Shown here in pieces: positions 27,386 to 46,152 of a stretch of 64,000 nt of DNA. The notes beneath the pieces are model-generated. The model was given only the letters and a program-made list of their open reading frames with translations. It searched no databases and was not told the origin of the DNA. This stretch comes from Gemmatimonadales bacterium. Its GTDB lineage: Bacteria > Gemmatimonadota > Gemmatimonadetes > Gemmatimonadales > GWC2-71-9. The DNA lies in the NCBI GenBank assembly GCA_040901965.1, contig JBBDYB010000012.1, positions 50,087-114,086 of the forward strand, in the 5' to 3' direction. Position 1 is the first letter of the stretch; every line of letters begins with the position of its first letter. The position numbers and the translations under genes are program-made.

Positions 27386-28882
27386 ATGGCTGAGACGTTC
27401 AAGAATTTCATTGCCGGCGAGTGGCTCGCGCCCTCCACGGGTGATTACTTCGACAACCGCAACCCAGCCGACTGGAACGACGTGATCGGGCGGTTCCCGC
27501 GCTCGGGGCCCGACGACCTGAAGCGGGCGATCGCATCGGCCCAGCGCGGGTTCACCCAATGGTCGCAGACGCCGGCGCCGATCCGCGGCCAGGTGCTGTT
27601 GCGGGTGGGGCAGCTGCTGGTCGAGCGCAAGGAAGAGATTGCGCGCGCCATGACGCGCGAGATGGGCAAGGTGCTCGCCGAAACGCGCGGTGACGTGCAG
27701 GAGGGAATCGATACCGCGTTCTATGCCGCCACGGAGGGCCGGCGGCTGTTCGGCCGCGTGGTACCGTCCGAGCTGCGCAACAAGTGGGCGATGAGCTACC
27801 GCCGCCCGATCGGCATCGCGGGCTTGATCACGCCCTTCAACTTCCCGCTCGCGATCCCCACGTGGAAGATGTTTCCCGCGCTGCTGTGCGGGAACGCGGT
27901 GATCTTCAAGCCCGCCGAAGACGTGCCCCATACCGGGCATCTTCTGGTCGAGGTGCTGCTCGCGGCGGGACTCCCGCCGGACGTCGTGCAGCTCGTGCAT
28001 GGCCAGGGGTCGGTCGTGGGGCGCGCGCTCGTGGAGCATCCCGACGTGCCCGTGATCTCGTTCACCGGTTCGACCGAAACCGGCTCGATGATCGGCGCGA
28101 CCTGCGGCAAGATGCACAAGCGGCTGTCGCTCGAGATGGGCGGCAAGAACGCGATGATGGTGATGGACGACGCCGATCTCGATCTCGCGCTCGAGGGCGC
28201 CCTGTGGGGCGCGTTCGGCACGACCGGCCAGCGCTGCACGGCCACGAGCCGTCTGGTCCTGCACGAGAAAATCCACGACCGCTTCCTTCAGATGGTTTGC
28301 GATCGCGCGAAGCAGTTGCGGCTGGGGCCCGGCCTCGATGACAAAACCGAGGTGGGACCGCTGATCCACGAGGCGGCGCGGCAGAAGGCGGCCGAGTACG
28401 TGGACATCGCCAAGAAAGAGGGCGCCACGGTCGCGATCGGCGGCCGGATCCCCCAGGGAGACAAGCGGCTCGAGTGCGGCTGGTTCTACGAGCCGACGGT
28501 GCTCGCCGGCGTGAAGCCGGGGATGCGCGTCGAGCAAGAAGAAATCTTTGGGCCGGTCCTCGCGGTCCTCAAGGCCAAAGATTTGGACGAGGCGATCCGC
28601 ATCAACAACGACGTGAAGTACGGGCTGTCGAGCTCGCTCTACACGCGCGACATCAACGGGGCGTTCCGGTCCATGGTGGATCTCGAGACGGGGATCACGT
28701 ACGTGAATGCGCCGACGATCGGCGCGGAGGCCCACCTCCCCTTTGGTGGCGTGAAGCAAACCGGCAACGGCCATCGCGAAGGGGGGTGGGAGGTCTACGA
28801 CTTCTACTCCGAGACCAAGACGATCTACGTCGACTACTCGGGGACGCTGCAGCGGGCGCAGATCGATACCTACACGGAGTGA
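27386..28882 (+). CDS. NAD(P)-dependent aldehyde dehydrogenase
   Basis: 498 aa with FKPAEDVPHTG, LEMGGKNAMMV (catalytic Glu), GQRCTATSRLVLH (catalytic Cys) and EEIFGPVLAV. Its last ~180 nt recur in diverged form at 32496-32678. Confidence 0.93.
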   Translation: MAETFKNFIAGEWLAPSTGDYFDNRNPADWNDVIGRFPRSGPDDLKRAIASAQRGFTQWSQTPAPIRGQVLLRVGQLLVERKEEIARAMTREMGKVLAETRGDVQEGIDTAFYAATEGRRLFGRVVPSELRNKWAMSYRRPIGIAGLITPFNFPLAIPTWKMFPALLCGNAVIFKPAEDVPHTGHLLVEVLLAAGLPPDVVQLVHGQGSVVGRALVEHPDVPVISFTGSTETGSMIGATCGKMHKRLSLEMGGKNAMMVMDDADLDLALEGALWGAFGTTGQRCTATSRLVLHEKIHDRFLQMVCDRAKQLRLGPGLDDKTEVGPLIHEAARQKAAEYVDIAKKEGATVAIGGRIPQGDKRLECGWFYEPTVLAGVKPGMRVEQEEIFGPVLAVLKAKDLDEAIRINNDVKYGLSSSLYTRDINGAFRSMVDLETGITYVNAPTIGAEAHLPFGGVKQTGNGHREGGWEVYDFYSETKTIYVDYSGTLQRAQIDTYTE

Positions 28883-28961
28883 GCGTCCGTAGCGCGGTTG
28901 ATGATGGGTTGACGGATTGGTCCCAGCTTCTTCCCCGTCCCGGCCGTCAAGGGGAAATGAT

Positions 28962-29519
28962 ATGTTTCCCGATGTGAAGACCACTCCTCCCCTGACTGCG
29001 GCGGACGTCGAGCGGATCTCGCTCCCCGGAAAGCAGGTCGAGCTGGTCCGGGGACAGTTGATTGTCCGCGAGCCTCCCGGCACCCATCACGGGGCCATCG
29101 CCGCGAACCTGGCGTATTACCTCGGCGACTTCGTGCGGAGCCACGGGTTGGGTAGAGTATTCGCTCAGGACACCGGGTTCAAGATCGCCTCCGATCCGGA
29201 CACCGTTCGGGCGCCCGACGTCGCGTTCGTCGGGGGGGAGCGGGTCGACCAGATCCCGCGGCGCGGCTACGCCGAGCTGGCGCCCGACCTCTTGGCGGAG
29301 GTTCTCTCGCCGGACGATCGCCCCGGCGAGGTGCTCGCCAAGGTCGCCGACTGGCTCGGCGCGGGCACGAAGCTCGTGTGGGTGGTGGATCCGGAGCGCT
29401 CCGAGGTCCGCGTCTACCGCCAGGACGGGAGCCTCGCCGTGTTACGGGGCAACGACTCCCTCGCCGGCGAGGACATTCTGCCGGGCTTCACCTGCCCCTT
29501 AGTGCAGGTCTTCACCTGA
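28962..29519 (+). CDS. Uma2-family (DUF820) putative endonuclease
   Basis: ATG 28962 gives MFPDVKTT.. The PD-(D/E)xK-like pattern typical of Uma2 is present: HHGAIAANL, RAPDVAFV, PDLLAEVLSP and VWVVDPE. Confidence 0.8.
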   Translation: MFPDVKTTPPLTAADVERISLPGKQVELVRGQLIVREPPGTHHGAIAANLAYYLGDFVRSHGLGRVFAQDTGFKIASDPDTVRAPDVAFVGGERVDQIPRRGYAELAPDLLAEVLSPDDRPGEVLAKVADWLGAGTKLVWVVDPERSEVRVYRQDGSLAVLRGNDSLAGEDILPGFTCPLVQVFT

Positions 29520-29544
29520 CACCCGGGGAACACCGCGACTGGCA

Positions 29545-29573
29545 TTGACCAATTTGGTCAAATCTGTTAGACT
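29545..29573 (+). promoter_or_regulatory. sigma-70-type promoter with embedded palindromic operator for phd-vapC
   Basis: TTGACC (29545-50), 17 nt, TAGACT (29568-73); the ATG follows 8 nt later. The -35 element is the left arm of a perfect inverted repeat TTGACCAA-T-TTGGTCAA (29545-29561). Confidence 0.5.
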
Positions 29574-29581
29574 CGGCGCTC

Positions 29582-29860
29582 ATGGCCCATCACAAGAAGA
29601 CTCGGCTGCCGCGCGAGGCCGTGAGCCTGTACGAGGCGAAGACCCATCTCTCCGAGCTGGTCGAGCAAGCCGCGCAGGGGCGGGAGATCATCATCGCCAA
29701 GTTCGGGAAGCCCAAGGCCCGGTTGGTCCCGCTCGCGCCCAAGGACACGCGCCACCTGCGGAAGCCCGGTAGAGGGAAGGGCAGGGGCTGGATCGCGCCC
29801 GATTTCGATGCGCCGTTGCCTCCCGAGGTGCTGCGGTTGTTCACTGGGGAATCCGGGTGA
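29582..29860 (+). CDS. Phd/YefM-family type II antitoxin
   Basis: 92 aa: AVSLYEAKTHLSELVEQAAQGREIIIAKFGKPKARLVPL is the typical prevent-host-death N-domain. 4-nt overlap with the PIN toxin gene. Confidence 0.85.
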   Translation: MAHHKKTRLPREAVSLYEAKTHLSELVEQAAQGREIIIAKFGKPKARLVPLAPKDTRHLRKPGRGKGRGWIAPDFDAPLPPEVLRLFTGESG

Positions 29861-30225
29861 GGCTGCTGCTCGACACGAATGCGCTGGTCCGGTGGCACCT
29901 GGGGAAGCTTCGGCCCGCTGCGGTTCGCACCCTGCAGCGGGCCGAGCTTGTCGCCGTGAGCGCAGTCAGCGCCTGGGAGATCGCGGTCAAGCGGGCGCTG
30001 GGCAAGTTGGACCTCAAGGACACCGTCGAACAGATCGTCGCGCGCTACGGGTTTCTCCCCCTGCCGGCGACGGTGCGACATGGCGATTTGTTGCGTGATC
30101 TACCGCTGCATCACGCCGACCCGTTCGACCGTCTGCTCATCGCGCAGGCGTTGGACGAAGGGCTCACGATCCTGACGTCGGATCGCGCCTTCGAGCCGTA
30201 TCGGGTGCCGGTGGTGTGGGTCTGA
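29857..30225 (+). CDS. vapC: PIN-domain toxin VapC
   Basis: 122 aa: MRLLLDTNALV (first acidic residue), SAVSAWEIAVK, and HHADPFDRLLIAQAL (conserved Asp). Confidence 0.88.
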   Translation: MRLLLDTNALVRWHLGKLRPAAVRTLQRAELVAVSAVSAWEIAVKRALGKLDLKDTVEQIVARYGFLPLPATVRHGDLLRDLPLHHADPFDRLLIAQALDEGLTILTSDRAFEPYRVPVVWV

Positions 30226-30389
30226 GGAGACGTTGGGCTGCGTCATTGCGCGCCATGATGCGAGGAACTGGTACGCGGGGTCGAGCGGCGATCGGCTAGA
30301 ATCGGCCCATGCCAGGCTCTGGCGTGCGACCCCTCCCGCCCCCGACGCCCCGGATGTATCGTCAATGTAGATACCGACCGGGAGGTGGC

Positions 30390-30632
30390 ATGCGCGTCCG
30401 CGTCCAGAAGTGGGGCAACAGCCTCGCCATTCGCATCCCCAAGCCGTTCGCCGCCGAGGCGGGTGTCTTGCAAGGCGGAGAAGTGGAACTGGCCGTCTCG
30501 CGTGGCCGGCTGGTCGTCGCACCTCTTGCTGCCCCGCGGTATCGCTTGCGGGAGTTGCTGGCCGCCGTCACCGCGTCGAACCGGCACGGCGAGGCGGACT
30601 TCGGCGGCCGCGTCGGTCGCGAGATCTGGTAG
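30390..30632 (+). CDS. mazE: MazE/AbrB-family antitoxin
   Basis: MRVRVQKWGNSLAIRIPKPFAAEAG...REIW aligns by eye with E. coli MazE (VKRWGNSPAVRIP...EVW). GGAGGTG lies 2 nt upstream of the ATG. Confidence 0.88.
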   Translation: MRVRVQKWGNSLAIRIPKPFAAEAGVLQGGEVELAVSRGRLVVAPLAAPRYRLRELLAAVTASNRHGEADFGGRVGREIW

Positions 30633-30982
30633 TGGCGAAGCGCTACGTCCCCGGCCGCGGCGATGTAGTGTGGGTGTCGCTCAACCCGCAGGCGGGGCAC
30701 GAGCAGGCCGGCCGGCGACCGGCGCTGGTCGTCTCGCCCCGCGCCTATAACGCCAAAGTCGGCCTGGCGATCCTCTGTCCCATCACGACGAAGACAAAGG
30801 GTTATCCGTTCGAGGTCGCACTTCCACAGGGGCTGGACGCGTCGGGCGTCGTCTTGGCGGACCAGGTGAAGAGCCTGGACTGGCGAGCGCGGCGCGCGGC
30901 CCTCCTGGCCCGCGTTCCGACGCAGACGGTCACGGAGGTCCTCGGCAAGCTCGGCACATTGCTGGCGGAAGGCGAGGTCTGA
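30632..30982 (+). CDS. mazF: MazF/PemK-family endoribonuclease toxin
   Basis: The GTG overlaps the mazE stop (TAGTG). VAKRYVPGRGDVVWVSLNPQAGHEQAGRRPALVVSP...TKTKGYPFEVAL...LADQVKSLDWRAR closely parallels E. coli MazF. Confidence 0.9.
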   Translation: MAKRYVPGRGDVVWVSLNPQAGHEQAGRRPALVVSPRAYNAKVGLAILCPITTKTKGYPFEVALPQGLDASGVVLADQVKSLDWRARRAALLARVPTQTVTEVLGKLGTLLAEGEV

Positions 30983-31023
30983 ACGACTGCTTCACGCCCT
31001 CGCTCGCCGCTGTCGCGGCGTCG

Positions 31024-31135
31024 CGCCGACCCGTTGGACCGGCTGCTCAGCGTGCAGGCGCTGGATGAAGGGCTCACGATCCTGACCGCGGATCGCGTGT
31101 TCGAGCTGTATCGCGTGCCGGTGGTGTGGGTCTGA
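31024..31135 (+). pseudogene. displaced 3-prime remnant of a vapC paralogue
   Basis: Encodes ADPLDRLLSVQALDEGLTILTADRVFELYRVPVVWV*. The intact gene at 30114-30225 encodes ADPFDRLLIAQALDEGLTILTSDRAFEPYRVPVVWV*. There is no upstream PIN sequence or start codon. Confidence 0.8.
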
Positions 31136-31253
31136 GGGCACCTGCGGTTTTCGGGCCCGGCCAGGACGACAAACGATGACGCGGGCCGCAGCGCCCCGGC
31201 TGATGTTCAGCCATGCCGTTCCCTTGCCCACCGAGCGCCGAGGAGCAGATACT

Positions 31254-31802
31254 ATGGGCATGGCCGCCCCGACTTATTGGACCGCCGACATGGTCCGGCA
31301 GCTTCCCGACGACGGCAATCGTTACGAAGTCGTCCACGGGGAGCTGCTGGTGACCCCCGCGCCCCGCTTCGACCACCAGCTCTTGGTGAGCCGGGTAGCT
31401 GTCGCCATCGCCAAGTACTTGGAGGAGGAGCCCGTCGGGATCATGTTGACGTCGCCCGCCGACATTTCCTGGGGGCGGGACGTTTTGGTGCAGCCCGACG
31501 TGTTCGTCGTCCCCCGTGATGAGGCGAAGAATCGCGACTGGTCCCGCATCCGGACCCTGCTGCTCGTTGTCGAAGTGCTGAGTCCCTCGACGGCCCGGGC
31601 CGACCGGTTCACGAAACGCCATCGGTATCAGGATGCGGGGGTGCCGTTGTACTGGCTCGTCGACGGAGAGGAGCAGCGGGTCGAGGTCTGGACGCCCGAC
31701 TCGGAGCTGCCGGTGATGGAGACGCAGCAGCTGGTCTGGCGCCCGGCAGGAGCCGGGCAAGCGTTCACGCTGGCGTTGGCCGAGCTGTTTCGTCCTGTCT
31801 GA
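31254..31802 (+). CDS. Uma2-family putative endonuclease
   Basis: [37 protein letters not shown]...[36 protein letters not shown]. This is the real part of ORF 31176..31802. Confidence 0.85.
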   Translation: MGMAAPTYWTADMVRQLPDDGNRYEVVHGELLVTPAPRFDHQLLVSRVAVAIAKYLEEEPVGIMLTSPADISWGRDVLVQPDVFVVPRDEAKNRDWSRIRTLLLVVEVLSPSTARADRFTKRHRYQDAGVPLYWLVDGEEQRVEVWTPDSELPVMETQQLVWRPAGAGQAFTLALAELFRPV

Positions 31803-31808
31803 GAGCTT

Positions 31809-32357
31809 TCACAGCGGCCGGAAGAGGTCCTCGAGCAACAGCATGAGCGGGGTCCGTGCACCCGCGGGCTGCCACGATAGCCGCTCGCGCTCGATGCGTG
31901 GGAACCGTGCCTCTGGCGTCCACACCTCCACCGCGTGTGCGTCCCCGTCCACAATCCAGTACAAGGGCACCCCCTGCTCCTGAAACAGGCGGCGCTTCGT
32001 GAAACGGTCGTGGCGCTTGGACGACGGGCTGAGCACTTCCACCACGAGCAACAGGTGGCGGATCTGCGCCCAGTCGTTCGTGCGGGCCTCTTCGAGCGGC
32101 ACCACGATGATGTCGGGAGAGACCAGCGTGTCCGGCCCGTACGAGATGTCCGACCGCGAGCCGAACACATGCCCCACCGGTTCGGCGCGAGCGTAGGCCC
32201 GGAGGGCATCGAAGATCCGCCCCCACACGATCTCGTGCCACGGTTTGGGTGCCGGGGTCACGAGCAGCTCGCCGTGGACGACCTCGTACTTGTTGCCGTC
32301 CTCGGGGAGTGCGCGCACCATGTCGGCCGTGTAGTAGATCGGGGCGGGCATGCCCAT
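31809..32357 (-). CDS. Uma2-family putative endonuclease (convergent paralogue)
   Basis: [37 protein letters not shown]...[36 protein letters not shown]. The stop lies 6 nt from the stop of the + strand paralogue. Confidence 0.85.
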
Positions 32358-32495
32358 AGTATCGGCTCCTCGGCGAGCGCTCGGCAAGAGGTCCACACGC
32401 CTCCGCAGTCTGGCGCATCGCCGGCCCGGGGGCGCCATCGTTTTCACGCGGGGAAGGGCGAATTGCTGCGTCGTCCGAGGCCACGCACAGTGCGT

Positions 32496-32678
32496 TACGT
32501 CAACGCGCCGACGATCGGCGCGGAAGCCCATCTCCCCTTCGGCGGCGTGAAGCAGACCGGCAACGGCCACCGCGAAGGGGGATGGGAGGTCTACGACTTC
32601 TACTGCGAGACCAAGGTCGTGTACGTCGACTACTCGGGGACGTTACAGCGGGCGCAGATCGACACGGAGGTTTCGTAG
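32496..32678 (+). pseudogene. displaced 3-prime fragment of aldehyde dehydrogenase
   Basis: Encodes [60 protein letters not shown]. The intact gene at 28700-28882 encodes [60 protein letters not shown]. By-eye nucleotide identity is roughly 90 percent, with mostly third-position differences. Confidence 0.85.
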
Positions 32679-32682
32679 CCTC

Positions 32683-33150
32683 CTACGAGGGGCTGGGTTC
32701 GAAGCATCCACCGCTCGGGAACGGGCCGGGCTCCGCTCCGACCAGTGATTCGCTGATTGTGAGCACGTCTCCGTTGACGGTGCCGACGATCGTAATCCCG
32801 GAGGAACCTGGCGCCGTGAAGGGAATCCGAATCGTGACGGCGCCCGCCTCATGCAAGCTGCCGGTCACCGGGCCAAAGGCATCCGGACGTACGCCGACGT
32901 CACCTGCGAACCAGAGGCCGACGCGACCGCGAACCTGCATGGCGTCGAGCGAGTCGATGATAATGGTGACCCGGAGGCCGGTGTTGAGAGAGGGTGCCTC
33001 GCGCACCATGGGAACGCTCGCGTAACGCCACTCGCCGAGGATTACCCCCAAGTCCCGGCGTGGCAGCGCGGTCGGCCCTTGGGAGCACGCGCCGAGCAAC
33101 CCCGTGGCAAACGACAGCAGCACGACGCGACGCAAGCGATGAGTGTGCAT
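32683..33150 (-). CDS. hypothetical lipoprotein
   Basis: 155 aa with a lipobox in MHTHRLRRVVLLSFATGLLGAC. It is the last gene of the minus-strand cluster. Confidence 0.6.
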   Translation of the reverse strand: MHTHRLRRVVLLSFATGLLGACSQGPTALPRRDLGVILGEWRYASVPMVREAPSLNTGLRVTIIIDSLDAMQVRGRVGLWFAGDVGVRPDAFGPVTGSLHEAGAVTIRIPFTAPGSSGITIVGTVNGDVLTISESLVGAEPGPFPSGGCFEPSPS

Positions 33151-33176
33151 GATGCCCTCCGGGTGCCCCGCTTTCC

Positions 33177-34627
33177 CTATTTGATCAGTCCCAATGCGCG
33201 CGCGATGTTGATCCTGCCGTGCCCGTAGATCGGATCCACACCGGGCTCGCCGAGGTCATCGGTCGACTGGAGGATCCGCGCACGGATCAGCGCGGGATTG
33301 CCGTGGCCCAGTTGCGCCACCAGCAGCGCCGCGAGTCCCGCGACGGTGGGCGCCGCGAAGCTCGTGCCACGGCCAAAACCTGTGACAAGCCGGCGCGCCC
33401 GGCAGGGCGGGATAGGCGTGGTTGTCGTCGGGGTCGTCGTGCACAGAAGCGTCACCCCCCGGAACTGACCTGCAATGCCGTCGCCGCCGGGCGCCGCCAC
33501 GTCGACGGCGGAGCGGCCGAAGGCGGTGTACGACGCCGGCGCGTCCACGTTTTGCCATGGCCCGTTGATCCCCGCCGAGGCGGTCGGGCCGGTGGCGGAG
33601 ACGCAAATCGCGTTGGCGGCCTCACAGGGCAGCCGCACCAAATCCCCATTGTGATCGAGGTCGGCGCTGTCGTTAAAGGGCAAGGAGACGAGGAGGGCGC
33701 CCTTCCGAAAGGCGTAATTCGCCGCCCGCTCGAAAGCCGCCACGATCCCCGGGTTCGCGCTCTTGTCGCGCTCGTGGCCCCAGCTGACGTTGATCACGTC
33801 GGCGCCCTGATCCGCGGCATACACGATACCGCTGAGGAGCCGGCCAACAGACCTCGCGTTGGTCGAGTCGGCGATCTTCACGGCGAGGAGCGTGACGTAA
33901 CGGTTCACCCCGGCCAGCATCGTCGCGTTGCTCGCGACGACGCCCGCGACGGCGGTGCCGTGCCAGAAGAGGTCGCTGAAGGGGAGCCGCCCGGGGTAGC
34001 GTGCCGCGACGTTCTCCTCCGTCACGAACGACGTGGAACGCTCGAGGTCAACGAGCCCGACAGGTCGGGTTGCAGGTAGTCGATGCCGGTATCGAGGATC
34101 GCGACTACGACGTCGCGCGAGCCCAAGTGACCGGCCGCCCACGCCTCGGGCGCGAACACGGCCCGCATGTTCCATTGCCGCGCGTAGAACTGAGCCAACG
34201 TCGGCGACGCCGTGGCATCCGCGGGCATGAGCGCCTCGCTCGACATCGGCTCGGCGACGGCGTCGGCGGCCTCGTCGTCATCCCGCAGGCTCATGACGAC
34301 GTCGGGCTCCACAGCTCGGATGTCCGCTGCCGCCGCCAACTCGGCCGCCGCAGCTTCAGGAAGGCCGGTGACGGTGGCCACACCGATGCTGTCGAGCGCA
34401 GCCTCAATGGAGCCGCCCAACTTCGAGACCCGCTCACCGAAGTCGGCCGGCACGCGCTCGGCCGCGAAGAGTACGAGGTAGCGGCCGAGCTGGTCGGCAG
34501 ACGTTACACTCGCGGCAAGCACCGCATCGCGACCGGACTGTGTAGGCACGCGTGCATCGCTGCAGCCTTGGAGCGCCAGCGCGGCGACAGCGGCCAACAC
34601 GAAGATGTTCGATGAACTGCGATTCAT
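33177..34627 (-). pseudogene. subtilisin-like S8 serine protease with I9 propeptide, interrupted by a -1 frameshift
   Basis: ORF 34022..34627 carries a lipoprotein signal (LALQGC), an inhibitor-I9-like propeptide and the catalytic Asp (VVAILDTGID). ORF 33177..34175 carries the His (HGTAVAG) and Ser (GTSFAAPTVAG). The frames join at ~34056: ...PDLSG|LVDLERSTSF would be restored by one extra G in the run. Confidence 0.8.
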
Positions 34628-34680
34628 GACTCACCTCTGATGATCGTGGTTCGGTCTGAAAGCGGGCCTCGCCCTTCGTC

Positions 34681-36189
34681 TCACGGCCAAGCCCTGTTCG
34701 AAAAGTCGGAATACCCGCCGTCCTTGGCGGCAACGACGTCGAACCCCAGGTACAGGTACCAATAGCTGTTCGTGTCCGTGGCGCGGTAGCTCGTCGAGTT
34801 GGCAGGGAGCTGGGCGATGACCTCTCGGCCGAAATCACCTATCAAGACATGGTAGCCATCTTCGACGGCGGAGTTGTCCGTCCACGTGAGCTCGACCGTG
34901 TACTCATCGACCGCTATCAGAACCAAGTTGGTCGGGCCCGCAGGCGGCGCCGTGCAGTCGACGTTCGATGAGGGCGAGTCGCCCTGGCCGTTGAAAGCGA
35001 TGACGCGATAGCACACCTGCACCTCGCTGACGCGCGCCGAGTCCGCGACCGGTCCGCCCCAGCCACCAGTCATCCCGACGTGAACCCAGCTCGCTCCACC
35101 GTCGGTCGACCGCTCGACACGAAACCCGTCCTCGTTGGTCGAGTTGTCGACCCAGTTGACCTGGATCGTGGTACTGGAGCTCGGCGCGGCATTCGCGTTC
35201 GCCGGCGCGGTCGGTGGCGCGCTGGCGGAGGCGGCGCTCGCGAAGTCGGAGGAGTAGGAGTATCCGCCATCCTTCTTCGCCCGCACCTTGTAGTAGTACG
35301 TCTTGTCGGCGATCACCCCGGCGTCGCGGTAGGCGGTGCTGTTCGCGGGCACGTCGGCCACGGCAGCCCAGGGCTCGTCCGGCGCAGCGCGCTGCACCTC
35401 GTAGCCGTCCTCCGTCGCGGAGTTGTCCGTCCACGCGAGATCGATCGCCGGTCCGGTCACGCCGATCGCGGTGAGGCCGCTCGGCCATGCCGGCGGTGTC
35501 GTGCAGTCCACGTTCGAGAACGCGGAGGTGCCCTGGGCGTTGAACGCCAAGGCCCGGTAGCACACCTGTTGCTCGGTCGCTAGTCCACCCAGCGTGAACG
35601 ACGTGGCATTGGGCCCAAATGTACTGACGAACGTCCAGGGTCCGGTGCTCGCGGCCGAGCGCTCGACGCGGAATCCATCCTCGTTGTCCGAATTATCGAT
35701 CCAAGAAACGGAGATGTGCTCACTGGTCAGCGGCACGACCGCCATTTCCGATGGTGCGTTCACGGGCGGCAGTGGTGGGGCGAACGTGGTCGCGCAGGCG
35801 GTGGTGGAGAACGCCGAGTAGCTGGTATTGCCTCCGGTAGTCCGAAACGCGCGGACCTTGTAGCAATACTGCGTCGAGGGATCGACCCCCGCGTCGCTAT
35901 AGCTAGTGATGTTCGCGCCAGTGGTGGCCCGCAGCGTGTACGCGCCGCTGGGCCCTGTGATCGAGCGGTGAACCTCGAAGCCGCTCTCATTGCTGGAGTT
36001 GTCTTGCCAGGTGAGGTCGATCTGGTTGTGCGAGACAGCACTTGCGCTGAGGCTCGCCGGAGTGTTTACCAGGGCGAAAGAGGGCGCGAGCGGATCGCGC
36101 TGGTCACAGCCGATGAGGAGCGAACCAAGCAGCAGGGGAACGGCCAAGCAGCGGTGGCGCACGTCGATCATGGGGCCTCCCGCGAGCAC
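34681..36189 (-). CDS. lipoprotein with five tandem fibronectin type III domains
   Basis: The lipobox is LLIGC. There are five repeats of the signature W-x-D-N-S-x-x-E-x-G-(F/Y)-x-V-x-R: LTWQDNSSNESGFEVHR, VSWIDNSDNEDGFRVER, LAWTDNSATEDGYEVQR, VNWVDNSTNEDGFRVER and LTWTDNSAVEDGYHVLI. Confidence 0.85.
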   Translation of the reverse strand: MLAGGPMIDVRHRCLAVPLLLGSLLIGCDQRDPLAPSFALVNTPASLSASAVSHNQIDLTWQDNSSNESGFEVHRSITGPSGAYTLRATTGANITSYSDAGVDPSTQYCYKVRAFRTTGGNTSYSAFSTTACATTFAPPLPPVNAPSEMAVVPLTSEHISVSWIDNSDNEDGFRVERSAASTGPWTFVSTFGPNATSFTLGGLATEQQVCYRALAFNAQGTSAFSNVDCTTPPAWPSGLTAIGVTGPAIDLAWTDNSATEDGYEVQRAAPDEPWAAVADVPANSTAYRDAGVIADKTYYYKVRAKKDGGYSYSSDFASAASASAPPTAPANANAAPSSSTTIQVNWVDNSTNEDGFRVERSTDGGASWVHVGMTGGWGGPVADSARVSEVQVCYRVIAFNGQGDSPSSNVDCTAPPAGPTNLVLIAVDEYTVELTWTDNSAVEDGYHVLIGDFGREVIAQLPANSTSYRATDTNSYWYLYLGFDVVAAKDGGYSDFSNRAWP

Positions 36190-36391
36190 TGATCTCGCGT
36201 TGGTTGACGCGGACGTGGTACGGACCGCCGGGGAGGGGTTGCTCAGGTGAGACTCAACAGGTCAGCGAGAGAACAGAGCGTGAAGGGGGAACGGGGAGAA
36301 GCGGCGGGCGATCCCTCGGCTTAGCGGCTAGTGGCGCGCAGCGGAGCTCTGCGCGGCTAGTGAAGCGTTGTTGACGCCGGTTCCTTGATCG

Positions 36392-36842
36392 CTAAGGCCT
36401 CCGGGCAGGAAGCAAGTCCCCGGCTGGGTGGTTCGTCAGGTTGACGAGCGCCGTGCCGTCGGCGTTCATCACGTAGACCTCGAAGTTCCCGCCGCGGTCG
36501 CTGTCAAAGGCGATCTTTGAGCCGTTGGGGGACCAGGCAGGAAACGCGTCCTTCGCCGGGTGGTTCGTCAGGTTGACGAGCGCCGTGCCGTCGGCGTTCA
36601 TCACGTAGATTTCCCAGTTGCCGTCGCGTCCAGGTCACGGCGCGGTACGGGAGCTCGTTGCCGGCTGCGTCTTTGACCTTCCCGTCAGCTGTAGCGTCTG
36701 GCCCATCACGATGCCAGCTACCGCGGGCGAGACTTCGACCGAGGCCGGCGGCATAGGCGGCGCGGTGGACTCGTTGCCGCAAGCGACGAGAACGAGTATT
36801 GCGGGGCAAAACAGCCGCGAGATGTGTCCCGACTCTTTCATT
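36392..36842 (-). pseudogene. decayed lipoprotein gene (Big_2 start fused out of frame to PD40/TolB-like repeats)
   Basis: ATG 36842 gives MKESGHISRLFCPAILVLVACGNES..VEVSPAVAGIVMGQTLQLTG. A frameshift then leads to KVKDAAGNELPYRAVTWT. A further shift leads into DGNWEIYVMNADGTALVNLTNHPAKDAFPAWSPNGSKIAFDSDRGGNFEVYVMNADGTALVNLTNHPAGD. Three frames are needed to read it. Confidence 0.6.
36426..36609. repeat. perfect 52-nt direct repeat, 132-nt period
   Basis: GGGTGGTTCGTCAGGTTGACGAGCGCCGTGCCGTCGGCGTTCATCACGTAGA occurs at 36426-36477 and again at 36558-36609. One PD40 blade is 44 aa, which equals 132 nt. Confidence 0.9.
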
Positions 36843-36867
36843 TGCCCCTCCTGCGTTCCGGACAGCC

Positions 36868-39528
36868 CTACGGCTGGCCGGCGACCTTGATCGGCACGTT
36901 GGTGCTCGTGGTCGTGCCGTCGCCGAGCTCCGCGAAGGCGTTGTAACCCCAACAGTACGCGGTCCCGGTCGTGGCGAGGGCGCAGGTATGGTCGGTGCCT
37001 GGCACGACCGCGGAGAACGTGAGCCCACCAGTCACCGCCATGGGGATCGACGTAGAGATGTAGGAGCCATCGCCGAGCTGACCGTACCGGTTATACCCCC
37101 AGCAGTACGCTGCCCCGGTCGTGGCGACGCCGCAGGTGTGCCACCGCCCGCCCGCCAGCGCGAGGAACCCGAGCCCACCGCTCACGGCCGCAGGGGTGAG
37201 CCGGTCGGTGGCGGTGCCGTCGCCTAGCTGACCGTCCGCGTTCCACCCCCAGCAGTACGCCGCCCCGCCGGTGGTCACACCACACGTATGAGTCCCGCCG
37301 GCGCTCACAGCAGCGAACGTCAGCTCACCGCTCACAGCCACGGGCATGGCGCTGGACGTGGTCGTGCCGTTGCCGAGCTGACCGCTGCCGTTGTCACCCC
37401 AGCAGTACGCTGCCCCACTAATCGTGAGGCCGCAGCTGTGCGTCCTGCCGGTACTCACTGACGAAAGGGTCAGGCCGCCCGCCACGAGCACGGGGACGGT
37501 GCTACAGGCCAGGACCGATGGGGTCCCGCCGCGTGTGGAACACGATTCCGGACCTGTCGTCACCCCGACGCCGAGCTGGCCCTCGTAGTTACGCCCCCAG
37601 CAATACGCCGCTCCGCTCGTGGTGACGCCGCAGGTGTGCGCATCTCCGGTGCTCACCACAGCGAACGCCAGCCCGCCTGTCACGGCCGCCGGGACCCGGC
37701 TGTCGTCGGGCGAGTCGATGCCGATGCCAAGCCGGCCGTAAAGGTTGTCCCCCCAGCAGTAGGCCGCTCCGCTGGTCGTGACGCCGCACGTATGAAAGAA
37801 AGTGGCGCTGAGCACGGAGAAGGTGACCCCGCCGGTGACGGCTACGGGGATCAGACGGGAGAACTCCGAGCCGTCGCCGAGCTGCCCATCCTGGTTCCAC
37901 CCCCAGCAGTAGGCTGCCCCGCTTGTGGTGATGCCGCAGCTGTGAAAAGACCCGGCGGTCATTGACCCCAGCTTGAGGACCACCCCCGTGATGGCCGCGG
38001 TATCGCTCACTTCCTCGCTGGTCGCTATCACGGCCGCGGTGCCTGCGCCGACGGCCGTCACCAGCCCGCTCACGCTCACCGTTACCGCCGCGGTGTTGTC
38101 GCTCGTCCAGGTGATCGGGCGCCCGAGGAGTATCCTGCCGTTGGCATCCCGGACGGTCGCTGACAGTTGCCTCGTGTACCGCAGCAGCACGCTCGCCGAT
38201 CCCGGGGCGACCGTCACCGACGCGACCGGCACCGCCGCGGTGACCGTCACGGAGGCGGTGCCGCTCGCCGTCCCGGTGGTGGCGGTGATCGTGGCGCTGC
38301 CCTGGCTCACGCCGGTCACCGCCGCGAGTCCCACCCTACCGTCTCCGGGGTCGTACGGCGCGACGGTCGCAACCGTCGGGGCGCTGCTGCTCCAGGTCAA
38401 CGACGGGTACCGGATCAACCGTCCCCGCGCATCCCGAACGGTCGCCGACAGGATGATCGTGTCGCCCCCGGCCCCGACGCTGGCTGGCGTCGGCGAGAGC
38501 ACCACGGACGCCGGAGTCCCTGTCGTGACGACGACCCGTGCGAACCCCGTCAACCCGTTGAGCGTCGCCGTAACGATGTAAAAGCCGGGCGCCAGCGCCG
38601 TGACCAGCCCGGTCGAGGAGACCGTGAGGGCGCTCGAATCGTTCGAGGACCACGCGAGGGGCTGCGTTATCAGCATGTTGCCCGCGGCGTCCCGCACCGT
38701 GGCCGTCATCTGGTACGTCGCCCCCTCGGTGATGGACACCGTGTCGGGCGACAGCATGATCGATGCGGCCGGGCCGGTCGAGGATTGCCCCGTCGTGAAC
38801 TCTACCGTGACGCCCGCTTCGAGGGCGTCGCCCTCGAGGTCCCGCACCGCCGCGGTCACGACCAGCCGGTAGTCGGTGTTCGGGTCGAGGGGCGCGGCAG
38901 GGATGAACGCGGCGGCCGCCCCGCTCCCCTGGAGCAGGCGCACTGCGCCCGCGACCGCAGTCGTGCCGCGGAACAGTTGCACCGACGAGCTCGTGAGCGT
39001 GCCGCCGTCGACCGGCTCACTGAAGACGATGACCAGCGCGGCGTTGAGCGGGACATCAGTCTTCCTGCGCGGAGGATTGGTCCGGACCACGATCGGCGGT
39101 CGGGCAGCAGTCACCACGACGCGCTCTTGGTACAGCGTGCCGCCGCCGGCGTCCGTCACAACGACCTCAATGGAGTCCCCTGTCTGCGCTTCGACCGGTA
39201 CCGGATCGAACCCGCCGTCCAGCACCGCGGTGGTGAGCGCCACGGTGTCGCCGATCCGGCGAATGGCCGCGCGGCTGCCCGTGGGGACGGTGCCGGGTAG
39301 TAGCGACACGTACACCACTTCGTCCTCCGCGCTGCTCGCCAGCGCAAGCGACGCCCCTGTGCTTGCGACGAGGCTGCCGGTCGGTACGGGATCCGAAACG
39401 ATCAAGCCTTCGACCGCGCACTCGGAGCACGGACCGCCGGGACTGTCGGAGCACCCGCCGAGCCATCCCAGCGTGCTCAAGAGCGCGAGGGCGATCGCTT
39501 GCGCGCAGCGGGACCGGCGAGTCGACAT
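36868..39528 (-). CDS. lipoprotein: Ig-like (Big_5/Big_2) domains + 7-bladed RCC1-like beta-propeller
   Basis: 886 aa with the lipobox GWLGGCSDSPGGP. The central region has Big_2-like segments (e.g. VVLSPTPASVGAGGDTIILSATVRDARGRLI..LTWSSS). The C-terminal part has seven H-x-C-G-x-T-x(2)-G-x-A-Y-C-W-G-x-N-x(2)-G-Q-L-G-D-G repeats. Confidence 0.88.
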   Translation of the reverse strand: MSTRRSRCAQAIALALLSTLGWLGGCSDSPGGPCSECAVEGLIVSDPVPTGSLVASTGASLALASSAEDEVVYVSLLPGTVPTGSRAAIRRIGDTVALTTAVLDGGFDPVPVEAQTGDSIEVVVTDAGGGTLYQERVVVTAARPPIVVRTNPPRRKTDVPLNAALVIVFSEPVDGGTLTSSSVQLFRGTTAVAGAVRLLQGSGAAAAFIPAAPLDPNTDYRLVVTAAVRDLEGDALEAGVTVEFTTGQSSTGPAASIMLSPDTVSITEGATYQMTATVRDAAGNMLITQPLAWSSNDSSALTVSSTGLVTALAPGFYIVTATLNGLTGFARVVVTTGTPASVVLSPTPASVGAGGDTIILSATVRDARGRLIRYPSLTWSSSAPTVATVAPYDPGDGRVGLAAVTGVSQGSATITATTGTASGTASVTVTAAVPVASVTVAPGSASVLLRYTRQLSATVRDANGRILLGRPITWTSDNTAAVTVSVSGLVTAVGAGTAAVIATSEEVSDTAAITGVVLKLGSMTAGSFHSCGITTSGAAYCWGWNQDGQLGDGSEFSRLIPVAVTGGVTFSVLSATFFHTCGVTTSGAAYCWGDNLYGRLGIGIDSPDDSRVPAAVTGGLAFAVVSTGDAHTCGVTTSGAAYCWGRNYEGQLGVGVTTGPESCSTRGGTPSVLACSTVPVLVAGGLTLSSVSTGRTHSCGLTISGAAYCWGDNGSGQLGNGTTTSSAMPVAVSGELTFAAVSAGGTHTCGVTTGGAAYCWGWNADGQLGDGTATDRLTPAAVSGGLGFLALAGGRWHTCGVATTGAAYCWGYNRYGQLGDGSYISTSIPMAVTGGLTFSAVVPGTDHTCALATTGTAYCWGYNAFAELGDGTTTSTNVPIKVAGQP

Positions 39529-39532
39529 GGCG

Positions 39533-42115
39533 TTAAGGCTGCCCCACGACCTTCACCGGTACGTTGCTGTTGGTCGTCGTGCCACTACCGAGCTGGCCGG
39601 AGGCGTTCCAGCCCCAGCAGTAGGCCGCCCCGGCGCTCGTGACCCCGCAGGTGTGACCGTAGCTTGTGACGAGGCCGCTGAAGCCTAAGCCCCCGGAGAC
39701 GGGGACCGGCGTGGAGCTCCTCGTGGTCGAAGCGTTGCCGAGCTGGCCGTAGTCGTTCCAGCCCCAGCAGTACGCCGTCCCGGCGCTCGTGCGCCCGCAC
39801 GTGTGGCCGCGGCTCATGCCCGTGGCGAGGGCGCTGAAGCTCAGGCCCCCCGAGACGGCGACCGGCGTTGCGCTGTTCGTGGTCGAGCCGTCGCCGAGCT
39901 GGCCGTGGTCGTTGGGGCCCCAGCAGTAGGCAGCTCCAACACCAGTGAGCCCGCAGGCGTGCCAGCCGCCGGCGGCGATGTCGTTGAAGTTGAGCCCACC
40001 GGTCACGGCCACGGGAACGGTGCTGCAGGAAACGCTTACGCCGTCGGGACGACAGGTCTCGGGACCTGTCGCTGTGCCGACCCCGAGTTCGGCATCCTCG
40101 TTCCGCCCCCAGCAATAGACTGCCCCGGCGCTGGTCAGCCCGCAGGTGAACCCCCCGCCCGCGGCGAGGGCGCGGAAAATGAAGCTCCCCGACACAGCCA
40201 CCGGAATGGAGCTATTCGTAGTCGAGCCGTTACCGAGCGCGCCGAGGCCGTTCCAGCCCCAGCAGTAGACCGCCCCGGCGCTGGTCAGCCCGCAGCTGTG
40301 ATACAAGCCTGCGGCGAGGGCGCTGAAGCTCACGCCCCCGGCCACGGCCACTGGAACTGGGCTGGAGGTCGTCGAGACGTCGCCGAGCTGCCCCTGCCCG
40401 TTGTAGCCCCAACAGTAGGCTGCGCCGGCGGAGGTGAGACCGCAGGCGTGAGCTTCGCCCGTGGCGAGAGCGCTGAAGCTGAAGCCCCCGGAGACGGCGA
40501 CCGGCCCGCCGTAAATGGCGCCCCAGCAGTAGGCTGCCCCGCTCGTGGTGAGACCGCATGTGTACCCCCGTCCGGCGCTCACTGACCCGAAGGTGATCCT
40601 CCCCACCGTGATGACCGCGGTATCGCTCCTGCTCTCGCTCGTCGCGATCACCGACACTGACCCGGTGCCCACTCCCATCACGAGCCCGTTCGCGTCCACC
40701 GTCGCCACGGCTCCATTGCCACTCGTCCACGAAATCGGGCGACCGACGAGCAGCGTGCCGTTCGCATCGCGGGTCGTGGCGGATAGGTGCGTGGTTCCGT
40801 CTACCACAATGGCTGCCGACTCGGGGCTCACGGTCACGAACGCGACCGGCGGAGGCGCGCCAAGGCCGACGACTTGCACCGGCTCGCTGCTGTTGATCGT
40901 CGTGCCGTTGCCGAGTTGGCCGTAACGATTGTCTCCCCAGCAGTACGTCGTGCCGCCCTGTGTCACGCCGCAGGTAGTCTGTCCACCCGCGCTCAGGGCC
41001 GCGAACCTGAGCCCGCCCGCGACGGGTACGGGCCTCGTGCTGCACGGCGTCTGCTGATAGCATGCTTCCTTCTCCGGTCCATTGGCGTCCCCGGTACCGA
41101 GCTGACCGTCTGAGTTGGATCCCCAGCAGTACGCCGCCCCGTTTGTGGTGAGACCGCAGCTGTGCCCGGCGCTGGTCACGGAGGAGAATGTGAGGCCACC
41201 GATCACGGCAACTGGAACCAAACTGGACGTAGTGGAGCCGTCCCCGAGCCCACCCGCACCATTCGGCCCCCAGCAGTACGCGGCGCCGCTGCCGGTCACG
41301 CCGCAGCGATTGCTGAGGCTCGTAAACGTGAGCCCGCCTGCGACGGCGACAGGGACCGAGCTGTAGCTGGCGGTCGAGCCGGTGCCGAGCAGCCCGGATT
41401 CGTTGTCGCCCCAACAGTAGGCGGTCCCGCTCGTGGTGAGACCACAGGTATGAAAGAGGCCAGCGGTCACCGCGGCGAAGCTGAGCCCGCCCGCGACCGC
41501 CACGGGCACGGTGCGGACGGGCCAACCGTTTTGGACCTCGTCGCCGCTGGTGGTGCCATCACCCAGTTGGCCGAAGCGATTATTCCCCCAGCAGTAGACT
41601 GCTCCGCTCGCGGTGAGACCGCACGCGTGACCGGGGCCGAAACCGTCGCCGATGGTCACAGCGTAGAACTGGTGCCCACCGCGCACGGCTGCGGGGGCCG
41701 AACTGGACGACGACGCCTCCAGAGACCCCCAGCAGTACGGTGCCGCCGTTGTGGTGAGACCGCAGCTCACAAAATTCCCGGCGGTCACCGCGGAGAACGT
41801 GAGCCCACCGGTCACGGCCACGGGGACCGAGCTGGAGGCGGTCGACCCGTCGCCGAGCGGACCCAAACCCCAGCAGTACACCTTGCCGCTCGCGGTCAGG
41901 CTGCAGGTCTTGAGGCCGCCGGCGCTCACTGACAGGAAGGAGCTCGTCGGCTCTGGCGGGATGATCGGGCCGCCGGGGGAATCGCTCGAGCAGCCGCCGA
42001 GCCACCCTACTGCGCTCAACACCCCGAGGGCGATCCCCGCTCGCACGAATCCCGTCGCGTATGGCACGGCCCCGTGATACGGACGGGCCTGGCCCGGCTG
42101 CTCAGGGTGATTCAT
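39533..42115 (-). CDS. lipoprotein: two 7-bladed RCC1-like beta-propellers separated by a Big_2 domain
   Basis: 860 aa with the lipobox GWLGGCSSDSPGGP. There are 14 YCWG-containing RCC1-like blades arranged 7 + 7. The central Big_2-like segment is VTVSPESAAIVVDGTTHLSATTRDANGTLLVGRPISWTS. The ATG overlaps the CHAT gene stop (ATGA). Confidence 0.88.
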   Translation of the reverse strand: MNHPEQPGQARPYHGAVPYATGFVRAGIALGVLSAVGWLGGCSSDSPGGPIIPPEPTSSFLSVSAGGLKTCSLTASGKVYCWGLGPLGDGSTASSSVPVAVTGGLTFSAVTAGNFVSCGLTTTAAPYCWGSLEASSSSSAPAAVRGGHQFYAVTIGDGFGPGHACGLTASGAVYCWGNNRFGQLGDGTTSGDEVQNGWPVRTVPVAVAGGLSFAAVTAGLFHTCGLTTSGTAYCWGDNESGLLGTGSTASYSSVPVAVAGGLTFTSLSNRCGVTGSGAAYCWGPNGAGGLGDGSTTSSLVPVAVIGGLTFSSVTSAGHSCGLTTNGAAYCWGSNSDGQLGTGDANGPEKEACYQQTPCSTRPVPVAGGLRFAALSAGGQTTCGVTQGGTTYCWGDNRYGQLGNGTTINSSEPVQVVGLGAPPPVAFVTVSPESAAIVVDGTTHLSATTRDANGTLLVGRPISWTSGNGAVATVDANGLVMGVGTGSVSVIATSESRSDTAVITVGRITFGSVSAGRGYTCGLTTSGAAYCWGAIYGGPVAVSGGFSFSALATGEAHACGLTSAGAAYCWGYNGQGQLGDVSTTSSPVPVAVAGGVSFSALAAGLYHSCGLTSAGAVYCWGWNGLGALGNGSTTNSSIPVAVSGSFIFRALAAGGGFTCGLTSAGAVYCWGRNEDAELGVGTATGPETCRPDGVSVSCSTVPVAVTGGLNFNDIAAGGWHACGLTGVGAAYCWGPNDHGQLGDGSTTNSATPVAVSGGLSFSALATGMSRGHTCGRTSAGTAYCWGWNDYGQLGNASTTRSSTPVPVSGGLGFSGLVTSYGHTCGVTSAGAAYCWGWNASGQLGSGTTTNSNVPVKVVGQP

Positions 42116-45318: not shown

Positions 45319-46106
45319 GGTCCGCCACCGACGATGCGGAAGGTCGCGAGATCGGAGGCGGCCCAGCGCATCCACACAGCCTGCGCCTCAACCCGCCAGA
45401 AGTAGGGCACGCGCGGTTGGAGCCTGACCGAGTCGGGAAGGGCTGCGGACGTGTCCGCCGTCTCGACGGTCCACAGAACCGACGCCTCGCGGTCGTAGAG
45501 GCGCACCCGGTAGCGCTCAGCCCCGGGGACGCCGGACCAGACCAGTCGGTCCACGCGAGCCACTGCCGCGCCGGGCGGCGGCCTGATCGGCACGGGTGCG
45601 ATCGTACTGGTGACGGTTGGCTCCCGGAGCCCGGGTGTCGGGCCGTCGTCGCGGCCACGCGGAAGAACCAGCAAGACAAGGGCGGCCGCTGCGGCGAGGC
45701 CCAGCGGGATCGACCAGCGGCGCCACCGCCGTGCGGGGGCGGAGGGAGCCGCTGCCTCCGCAACGAAGCGAGCGGTTGCCTTCACGAGAGAGCGGCAGCG
45801 AGCGCAGATCAACAGATGGGTGACGACGGAAGCTCGCTGACCTGCGTTCAGGCGTCCGTCGACGAAATCGGCAAGCACGAGCTCGTCCGGGCAGCCCGGC
45901 GTCTCGATCCGGCGCTCGAGCAGCGCCGGGCCGCGCAGCAACCCGGCGGCCTGCTGTAACTCTTCGATCTCGGTCCGGCAAATCGCACAGCCATCTACGT
46001 GTTGAGCCGACGCCGCGTCTTCCGCGCCGAGCGCATAGGGCACCAGGAGTTCGGGGGCGGGGTGGGGAGAGGTCACACGCCGCATCCGCTTGATGGCTTC
46101 GAGCAT
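45315..46106 (-). CDS. membrane anti-sigma factor with two zf-HC2 (H-x3-C-x2-C) motifs
   Basis: 263 aa with HVDGCAICRTE and HLLICARCRSL. The TM helix is WSIPLGLAAAAALVLLVLP. A ~100-aa C-terminal extracytoplasmic domain follows (VWSGVPGAERYRVRLYD...FWRVEAQ). Confidence 0.8.
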   Translation of the reverse strand: MLEAIKRMRRVTSPHPAPELLVPYALGAEDAASAQHVDGCAICRTEIEELQQAAGLLRGPALLERRIETPGCPDELVLADFVDGRLNAGQRASVVTHLLICARCRSLVKATARFVAEAAAPSAPARRWRRWSIPLGLAAAAALVLLVLPRGRDDGPTPGLREPTVTSTIAPVPIRPPPGAAVARVDRLVWSGVPGAERYRVRLYDREASVLWTVETADTSAALPDSVRLQPRVPYFWRVEAQAVWMRWAASDLATFRIVGGGP

Positions 46107-46152
46107 CGCGGACGTGTTACGGACACGCGGTGCCGATCTGCTCGCCGGCGAT

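Follow-up and report, generated by a model that had tools for sequence, protein, structure and literature searches.

The experiments that defined homology-facilitated illegitimate recombination (HFIR) were carried out on naturally transformable bacteria and on Escherichia coli conjugation (PMC3240628). Displacement of this type has been proposed for the effector–immunity arrays of type VI secretion systems (T6SS) in Vibrio cholerae (PMC5361080) and for the orphan 3' ends of Rhs genes (PMC2935791). Uma2 proteins (COG4636/PF05685), in turn, have been described as likely solo toxins, found mostly in cassettes of paralogous genes (Makarova et al., PMC2701414). Here we analysed a stretch of 64,000 nucleotides, hereafter the window, from the Gemmatimonadales bacterium contig JBBDYB010000012.1 (assembly GCA_040901965.1, positions 50,087 to 114,086), in which an intact aldehyde dehydrogenase gene (aldH) is followed by an islet of Uma2 and toxin–antitoxin (TA) genes and then by a second, 5'-truncated copy of the aldH 3' end. 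The 3' end of the intact gene is called copy A and the truncated one copy B. A preliminary description of this DNA had seen a single 3.6-kb incoming unit bounded by the two copies. Our data favour, with a probability of about 0.55, a different reading, in which the islet would carry the scars of one-sided homologous plus illegitimate recombination, that is, of an HFIR-like displacement of gene 3' ends in a hotspot between aldH and lepB.

The repeated 3' end of aldH

The end of aldH (28700-28882) recurs at 32496-32678, exactly where the preliminary description had placed it. Specifically, positions 28700-28869 and 32496-32665 form a direct repeat without gaps at 89% identity (152/171 nt, or 155/183 with the divergent final 12 nt included), close to the 90 percent estimated by eye, with longest exact blocks of 22, 21 and 20 nt. 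The homology begins abruptly, all eight codons that precede 32496 being unlike aldH. Copy B stays in frame with aldH up to a TAG of its own, as had been claimed, and the reported C-terminal tails, DTYTE* in A and DTEVS* in B, differ in the last four codons; a start codon and a promoter of its own are both absent from copy B.

The differences between the copies had been called mostly synonymous, and the counts agree: the 57 codons common to A and B hold 12 synonymous and 3 non-synonymous differences (S>C, TI>VV). By the Nei–Gojobori method these amount to 14.3 synonymous and 4.7 non-synonymous changes, with a dN/dS of 0.07 (binomial p = 5e-6 against neutrality), which indicates that A and B diverged as parts of working genes, in different lineages. 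Judged by these substitutions, A and B represent two alleles of the aldH 3' end whose divergence took place under purifying selection, and with this the earlier view that there was no in-situ target-site duplication holds. At 94.7% identity, copy B resembles the intact aldH tail found in another species (L011; labels of the form L### denote related loci or contigs and X# sequencing runs, X1 being the source run and X2 another sediment run), and copy A is at most 89.5% identical to the aldH tail of any orthologue. The sole private change in B is Ser>Cys at 32605, a position occupied by Ser in all 80 orthologues and in the related contig L087. An exact-protein look-up of the window's aldH matched no record.

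These figures leave only a very remote chance to an in-situ duplication, or to an old aldH paralogue decayed in place until its last 61 codons were left. Decay would gather non-synonymous changes, against the low dN/dS and the one private amino-acid change of B, and B is nearer to a working gene of another species (94.7%) than to A (89%). A tandem duplicate could indeed leave a direct repeat of a gene end as its last trace, and the L087 stump is longer than copy B; however, the remnants are ordered in a nested fashion (A, vapC, vapC remnant, B) and not in tandem, a second aldH tail is absent from all 80 syntenic loci, and none of more than 100 related loci has both copies. The ancient duplication shared by every relative, which the preliminary description had named as a counter-case, was therefore found in 0 of these loci.

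The A/B arrangement did not arise in assembly. An independent Logan unitig from the source run X1, of depth 264, spans 28204-32567 with zero mismatches, running from inside aldH through the islet to B-specific bases, while a second X1 unitig, of depth 276, starts at 32546 and carries B-specific bases into the lipoprotein and protease genes; read depth over the islet region is even in these unitigs. A chimeric join of two strains at the aldH tail could draw on the high conservation of this tail, on the many foreign aldH variants that map to 32466-32726 in metagenomes and on the break of the Logan unitigs within B (32546-32567). Against the two deep unitigs, the even depth and the independent recurrence of the B–lipoprotein junction in L087 and of the Uma2-3/B junction in run X2, we give it next to no credence.

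Two further observations concern the repeat. In the source sample X1 (28663-28866 / 32496), a second population at about 95x has an intact aldH tail that maps better to B than to A, and its DNA 3' of aldH is unlike the lipoprotein gene of the window. In addition, a 247-aa open reading frame (ORF) at 31935-32678 on the plus strand, antisense to Uma2-3, enters copy B in frame; it is probably a spurious ORF of high-GC DNA, which would supply B with a reading frame if transcribed.

Modules, stumps and scars in the hotspot

The order ntrC–membrane protein–aldH is conserved in 80 Gemmatimonadales loci from species-level genomes, whose aldH proteins are 74-92% identical. In distant relatives a homologue of the window's sigma-70 gene (48020-48982) or of lepB lies within 100-400 nt of aldH, some of them having the signal peptidase gene (47274-48089 in the window) between aldH and sigma-70, whereas closer relatives carry 2-7 kb of unrelated genes after aldH. 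Therefore, we regard 28883-47273 as a variable region; on this comparison, this Gemmatimonadales lineage has a hypervariable hotspot that reaches from aldH to the genes of the signal peptidase and sigma-70 (47274/48020), with aldH as the conserved anchor at its left edge. In the window the hotspot contains the islet, the lipoprotein gene, an S8 protease, an fn3 protein, two RCC1/Big-repeat genes, a CHAT-TPR gene and a pair of genes for an anti-sigma factor and an extracytoplasmic function (ECF) sigma factor. The preliminary description had suggested looking for related islets that still bear a recombinase; when the 100 largest ORFs that follow aldH in 40 relatives were classed by family, no integrase or transposase was among them.

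Contigs with the same flanks were found through lipoprotein homologues, and they hold different subsets of the islet. L084, L085 and L086 have aldH-phd-vapC followed by Uma2-3, lipoprotein, S8 and fn3 genes on the opposite strand, without a second aldH tail; L088 and L082 show the order of L085, except that about 600 nt of other DNA separate aldH from phd, again without a second tail. In L089 and L090, Uma2-2 is followed by a convergent lipoprotein gene. L004 carries phd-vapC-mazEF in one piece, colinear with the window over 29545-30987, and L005 has aldH-phd-vapC and an ECF sigma gene on the opposite strand. In X3, Uma2-2 comes after aldH, and in contigs of X6 and X28 vapC is followed by a convergent Uma2-3. 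Three separate stretches of the window are extra relative to L085, namely 28874-29544 (Uma2-1), 30222-31807 (mazEF, vapC remnant and Uma2-2) and 32481-32683 (filler and copy B). The edges of the modules recur among relatives, phd-vapC always starting at TTGACCAATTTGGTCAA (29545).

The nearest strains, found in other samples (X22-24 and X28), are 96-99.7% identical to the window, contig by contig, from aldH through the vapC remnant and again in S8 from 33291, and their copy A tail is joined to Uma2-1. Their Uma2-2 is about 88-94% identical, and Uma2-3, copy B and the lipoprotein gene are all missing; even when matches down to 80% likeness are admitted, positions 32727-33074 have zero depth, and one run reaches a depth of about 1 up to 33161. 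As far as these contigs tell, copy B and the lipoprotein gene are strain-specific, and copy B may have come with the lipoprotein gene and not as a displaced resident. The comparison likewise indicates that the islet is not one element bounded by A and B. The single incoming unit of the preliminary description is contradicted in two ways: relatives hold subsets of the modules at the same place without any duplication of aldH, and the nearest strains differ by Uma2-3, B and the lipoprotein gene instead of by the A-to-B interval.

The same observations bear on a decayed site-specific island, similar to e14 or phage 21, which would have entered with its own integrase and a substitute aldH 3' end and later lost the integrase. 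Its anatomy would be that of icd...e14...icdC in E. coli (PMC13626634), where an intact gene runs into the element, the far end holds a fragment of the C-terminus as a pseudogene, and the differences are for the most part synonymous; the cargo here is accessory and defence-like. We nevertheless hold such an island to be improbable, because an integrase is absent both here and from the equivalent region of the 40 relatives, the stump start varies (codons 439, 423, 409) and the islet does not behave as a unit, relatives holding parts of it without an att duplication and the nearest strains differing by another interval. In addition, there is no GC shift, and the nested vapC scar described below would demand a second element of the same kind.

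This second scar, missed in the preliminary description, lies directly after mazEF and directly before Uma2-2. The 3' end of vapC (30104-30227, TGA included) recurs at 31014-31137 with 109/124 nt identical (88%); the N-terminal PIN residues are missing from the remnant, and no antitoxin gene goes with it. It shares substitutions with the vapC genes of L082, L085 and L088 that are not found in the window's own vapC. An origin from another haplotype is suggestive only, since its identity to these alleles (84-89%) is no higher than the 88% to the window's vapC, and since the dN/dS of 0.33 between vapC and the remnant is not significant. The remnant is also present in related strains from other samples, by which measure the vapC scar is older than that of copy B and common to related strains. 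The aldH and vapC pairs are the only dispersed direct repeats in the window outside repeat-protein genes, and self-comparison of 1.49 Mb of related loci gave two other matches only, S8 protease copies in L084 (one cut by a contig end) and fn3 repeats in L093.

Some of the nearest strains show a local variant beside the remnant. In X22, X23, X24 and X28 a 35-nt insertion (GCGCAGCGCGATAGAGCGCGCCATCGTTCTCGCTG) separates the vapC remnant from the Uma2-2 module (31141/31142), and the remnant of X23 and X24 also differs in its last 44 nt. A joint 30227>31142 in X22 was first taken for a vapC–Uma2-2 haplotype without mazEF and was discarded, being really the junction of vapC remnant and Uma2-2 with the 35-nt insertion.

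Copy B has counterparts outside the window. L087 carries the same junction of stump and lipoprotein gene, with 588/590 matches over 32606-33195 and no more differences up to 33212, after which identity collapses inside S8. Its stump starts about 48 nt further upstream, at about codon 423, and its left neighbour is the upstream region of a lipoprotein paralogue and not Uma2-3. The two stumps are identical at 177/183 positions; the first 110 nt hold six differing sites, five synonymous and one non-synonymous (hand binomial p ~0.003). This excess of synonymous differences suggests two independent truncations, in which the B and L087 stumps would have been cut from two working B-type aldH genes, each ending 4 nt from the lipoprotein stop. 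A third stump, in L107, is cut at codon 409 and joined to an ECF-sigma gene fragment. L108 (codon 397) and L109 (codon 417) may hold further stumps, on short, weak contigs, of which L108 (1.4x) may be chimeric. The 5' cuts therefore vary, each with a different left neighbour, and the 3' end is constant, so that no fixed crossover marks the left edge of the remnant. The latter had also considered that copy B might be part of a longer degraded aldH: nothing of this aldH lies upstream of 32496 within the window, and a longer stump does exist in L087. From these junctions we infer that copy B is the stump of a B-type aldH once arranged tail-to-tail with the lipoprotein gene.

To the left of copy B, the window is homologous to the region upstream of Uma2-3 in L082, L084, L085 and L088 up to about 32480, after which comes the 15-nt filler. 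The sequence TTACG (32495-32499) is common to the lipoprotein stop region of L085-type haplotypes (GGTTTACGAGGGG) and to aldH codons 438-439, and is a possible 5-nt microhomology at the junction; the 14 nt of filler before it match at 6/14, and TTACG could be due to chance. The Uma2-3/filler/B junction is also found in an X2 contig (93% identical, no gaps), so the scar may predate this strain. A conserved junction motif was not detected, no 8-mer being common to more than two of ten independent module junctions.

An intact B-type aldH next to the lipoprotein gene was sought with the stump peptide, which matched mainly short proteins and no such parent. The matches on long contigs (L103-L106) are frameshift-split full-length aldH genes and not stumps. 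More generally, many public 'short aldehyde dehydrogenase' proteins are halves of frameshift-split genes, several of them in long-read assemblies, and mimic displaced 3' ends until their DNA is inspected.

Table 1. Features of the aldH islet, with positions in the window
Feature	Position	Strand	Remarks
Intact aldehyde dehydrogenase gene aldH	27386..28882	+	498 aa; Pfam Aldedh E = 4e-164
aldH 3' end, copy A	28700..28882	+	codons 439-498 + stop; belongs to working gene
Uma2-1, PD-(D/E)XK nuclease family	28917..29519	+	Pfam Uma2 E = 7e-35; PADLOC PDC-S03
Promoter-like site with palindrome TTGACCAATTTGGTCAA	29545..29573	+	conserved left edge of phd-vapC module
Phd/YefM-type antitoxin (phd)	29582..29860	+	PF02604
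VapC (PIN) toxin, intact	29857..30225	+	PF01850; 4-nt overlap with phd
MazE antitoxin	30390..30632	+	PF04014 E = 3e-11
MazF/PemK toxin	30629..30982	+	PF02452
5'-truncated vapC 3' remnant with stop	31014..31137	+	88% identical to 30104-30227
Uma2-2	31176..31802	+	Pfam Uma2; module ~31142-31803
Uma2-3	31809..32357	-	Pfam Uma2; module 31808-32480 including conserved upstream region
15-nt junction filler CCACGCACAGTGCGT	32481..32495	.	alignment
aldH 3' remnant, copy B	32496..32678	+	codons 439-498 of B-type aldH + TAG
Lipoprotein-like gene, no Pfam match	32683..33150	-	stop 4 nt from copy B stop

The gene content is listed in Table 1. The three Uma2 genes and two TA pairs reported between the copies are all present, the latter being type II pairs of PhdYeFM with PIN and of MazE with PemK (MazF), each with a 4-nt overlap. 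The Uma2 genes score 100-120 bits against a Pfam gathering cut-off of 27, and the three proteins all match the PADLOC candidate defence system PDC-S03 (E = 1e-15 to 1e-23), so the islet can be read as a small defence/TA islet. The Uma2-1 module (~28884-29544) is missing from L084-L086, the mazEF module covers 30228-30987, and the Uma2-3 module is 90-92% identical to those of L082, L084, L085 and L088. The TTGACCAATTTGGTCAA site is the only sigma-70-like site within 28600-33300, and homology to the phd-vapC of every relative begins at 29539-29545. The absence of integrase, transposase and tRNA stated in the preliminary description also stands: Pfam shows no recombinase domain across the islet genes and their neighbours, and there is no tRNA in the whole window. 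Composition revealed no GC anomaly in the islet, and Rfam has no match there.

A few side observations concern these modules. A 142-nt inverted repeat at 80% identity (31223-31364 and 32247-32388) corresponds to the 5' ends of the convergent Uma2-2 and Uma2-3, whose proteins are 59% identical overall; it begins about 30 nt upstream of the likely MGM start codons, which indicates that the 5' leader is conserved besides the coding part. In L084, L085 and L086 the aldH stop TGA falls within the -35 box (cTTGACC) of the TTGACCAATTTGGTCAA phd-vapC promoter (aligned to window 28870-28883 and 29545), so that the last aldH codons (…DTYET*) overlap the left edge of the TA module. An operator-like copy right after the aldH stop, TTGACGGATTGGTC, was considered as a third scar and rejected, its score being no better than that of shuffled sequence. 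The octamer GCGCCGAC (28709, 31023, 32505), found 9-13 nt in from the 5' edge of each of the two stumps and of copy A, was likewise put down to probable chance, because it occurs 16 times in the window against about 21 expected and the L087 stump starts elsewhere.

Further to the right, the S8 protease gene (33177-34627, minus strand) is split into overlapping ORFs, 33177-34175 (332 aa) and 34022-34627 (201 aa), and is a single gene of 477-482 aa in L082, L084 and L085. The split looks like a real frameshift or pseudogene and not an assembly error, since the Logan unitig L081 has it too. Two large adjacent genes of 150-nt periodic repeats occupy 36900-42100 on the minus strand and are of RCC1/Big_2 type by comparison with L082. 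They are followed, within the aldH–lepB variable region, by the gene of the CHAT-TPR protein (42115-45387) and by the anti-sigma (zf-HC2)/ECF sigma pair (45318-46977).

Proposed recombination at the locus

The islet shows an intact gene followed by a 5'-truncated copy of another allele, with a conserved anchor on one side and variable, non-homologous DNA on the other; together with the variable cuts, microhomology at most and the lack of a recombinase, this corresponds to the signature of one-sided HFIR. In such an event, DNA of another haplotype would recombine through homology on one side and through an illegitimate, microhomology-level join on the other. The illegitimate join would land in aldH codon 438/439 and not past the stop codon, which would leave 183 nt of one allele's tail behind, while the intact aldH would be retained with the tail of the other allele. 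The vapC remnant after mazEF would be a second scar, left by an earlier event of this type. If A recombined with B, or vapC with its remnant, the genes in between would be lost cleanly and a chimeric gene that still works would remain.

As to direction and DNA entry, which we infer from the anatomy of the locus, two courses can be drawn. In the first, a fragment with tail A and the islet would enter a B-type genome, anchored in aldH and with its illegitimate join at codon 438/439, and B would be the displaced resident, as the preliminary description had it. In the second, the segment from codon 439 of the B-type aldH through the lipoprotein gene would enter an A-type genome, anchored on the S8 side, and B would be a hitch-hiker. 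Both would fit equally well; the lack of B and the lipoprotein gene in the nearest strains leans to the second course, although a deletion there is possible. The displaced resident of the preliminary description thus survives as one of two courses, and not the one that the nearest strains favour. Of its two mechanisms, a decayed island or a homology-driven replacement that needs no self-encoded recombinase, the latter would fit better.

Several points weigh against an HFIR-like displacement. An intact B-type aldH next to a lipoprotein gene, the parent that the stumps let us postulate, was not found, and the 5-nt microhomology could be fortuitous. HFIR is experimentally rare (PMC5361080, PMC3240628), yet two scars would lie within 4 kb of each other. 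It would need the uptake of linear DNA, by competence or conjugation, in an organism known from metagenome contigs only. Both directions would fit, with the islet and tail A entering a B-type genome or B and the lipoprotein gene entering an A-type one. Moreover, given the X2 junction, the scar may stem from another lineage and have arrived as a ready-made block by ordinary homologous recombination. Finally, the same end structure would result from a Campbell-type integration of a circle.

In the latter case, a non-replicating circle with an aldH tail and accessory genes would have integrated through a single crossover in the aldH 3' end, and could leave by A–B recombination. An intact gene, an insert and a direct, 5'-truncated copy are the product expected of a single crossover, exact blocks of 20-22 nt could support RecA pairing, and a recombinase would be unnecessary, as it is absent; a circular intermediate has been proposed by Jackson et al. 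for Rhs tips (PMC2935791). In addition, the copies look like a mosaic compatible with a crossover inside the repeat, A combining TI, as in close relatives, with ...YTE, as in L014, and B combining VV, as in L011, with ...TE.., as in close relatives. This mosaic is not diagnostic, however, because TI+DTY and VV+DTE both occur in intact orthologues (e.g. L015, L021, L020, L023); for the same reason, the attempt to judge the native copy from these amino-acid states (TI/VV; ...YTE vs ...TE..) was dropped. A circle would still require an earlier illegitimate join of the Uma2-3 upstream region to aldH codon 439, no relative has the same insert with both tails, and the stump lengths vary between the window, L087 and L107. 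Neither a circular junction nor an A–B deletion product was seen in the unitigs of the source run, where rare variants drop out. We consider this course unlikely, if still worth keeping in mind.

A dedicated mechanism encoded elsewhere, which would insert Uma2/TA modules at gene 3' ends, is a long shot. For example, Uma2 might make breaks near stop codons that would be mended by homing-like repair from other haplotypes, the stumps being footprints and landing pads. Cassettes would then be gained and lost without harm to the host gene; a link of Uma2 activity to rearrangements is not in evidence at this locus.

The locus among known systems

On the HFIR-like reading, the locus would be a natural example, in the uncultured soil and sediment phylum Gemmatimonadota, of accessory genes piling up next to a conserved gene in the absence of mobile-element machinery. 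Separate events can be told apart by the scars, the vapC scar being shared by related strains and the aldH scar, with the lipoprotein gene, being strain-specific. A duplicated gene end with synonymous differences is insufficient to call an integrative island, while variable stump lengths and the partial sharing of modules among relatives separate a scar from an island. The direct repeats also predict a clean and reversible loss of the TA and Uma2 genes through a chimeric, functional aldH or vapC.

Like the Uma2 cassettes of PMC2701414, the islet brings together Uma2 paralogues, three in number, along with type II TA pairs; that study calls Uma2 cyanobacteria-specific, whereas the present genes belong to Gemmatimonadales. 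Integron arrays resemble the islet in that small, promoter-poor modules stand end to end from a fixed point and older ones are pushed distally. They differ from it by their IntI, which is absent here, and by module orientation, which is mixed in the islet; shared 8-mers at ten junctions revealed no attC-like element.

The insertion of e14 or phage 21 in E. coli icd, with its icdC pseudogene, is described in PMC13626634, which cites Hill et al. 1989. The likeness lies in the 3' end of a protein gene at both ends of accessory DNA, in the mostly synonymous differences, in the gene that stays functional, and in the deletion between the copies, which would yield a working chimera as on e14 excision. 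On the other hand, e14 encodes an integrase, integrates at a fixed att core and is either present or absent as a whole, none of which holds here. One of the four defining features of that system is therefore shared, namely a substitute 3' end that keeps the gene intact, with the displaced fragment at the far end.

The C-terminal displacement of Rhs and contact-dependent growth inhibition (CDI) genes, with its orphan tips (PMC2935791, PMC3150448), is similar in that an intact gene is followed by 5'-truncated, direct 3' copies from other alleles, and in that the ends can be exchanged when a copy recombines with the main gene. Their tips, however, are polymorphic toxins with immunity genes and form a functional reservoir, whereas the aldH tail is a conserved enzyme C-terminus with 57/60 residues unchanged. 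Neither the aldH tail nor the vapC remnant shows variable toxin tips with cognate immunity genes, and since what was displaced is the C-terminus of a conserved enzyme in one case and a defunct piece of a toxin in the other, we do not count the locus among those of polymorphic toxins.

Another parallel is with HFIR and the T6SS arrays. There, too, a conserved anchor lies beside non-homologous DNA, new DNA is added through illegitimate junctions and pushes the old downstream, a dedicated recombinase plays no part, and the locus is a mosaic with many haplotypes. Here the anchor is a housekeeping enzyme gene, or a TA toxin gene in the nested case, the leftover is a non-functional stump and not a retained immunity gene, and the mechanism is deduced from anatomy alone. 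In conclusion, the locus is best read as a known kind of event at a new place, and not as the ends of a new mobile element.

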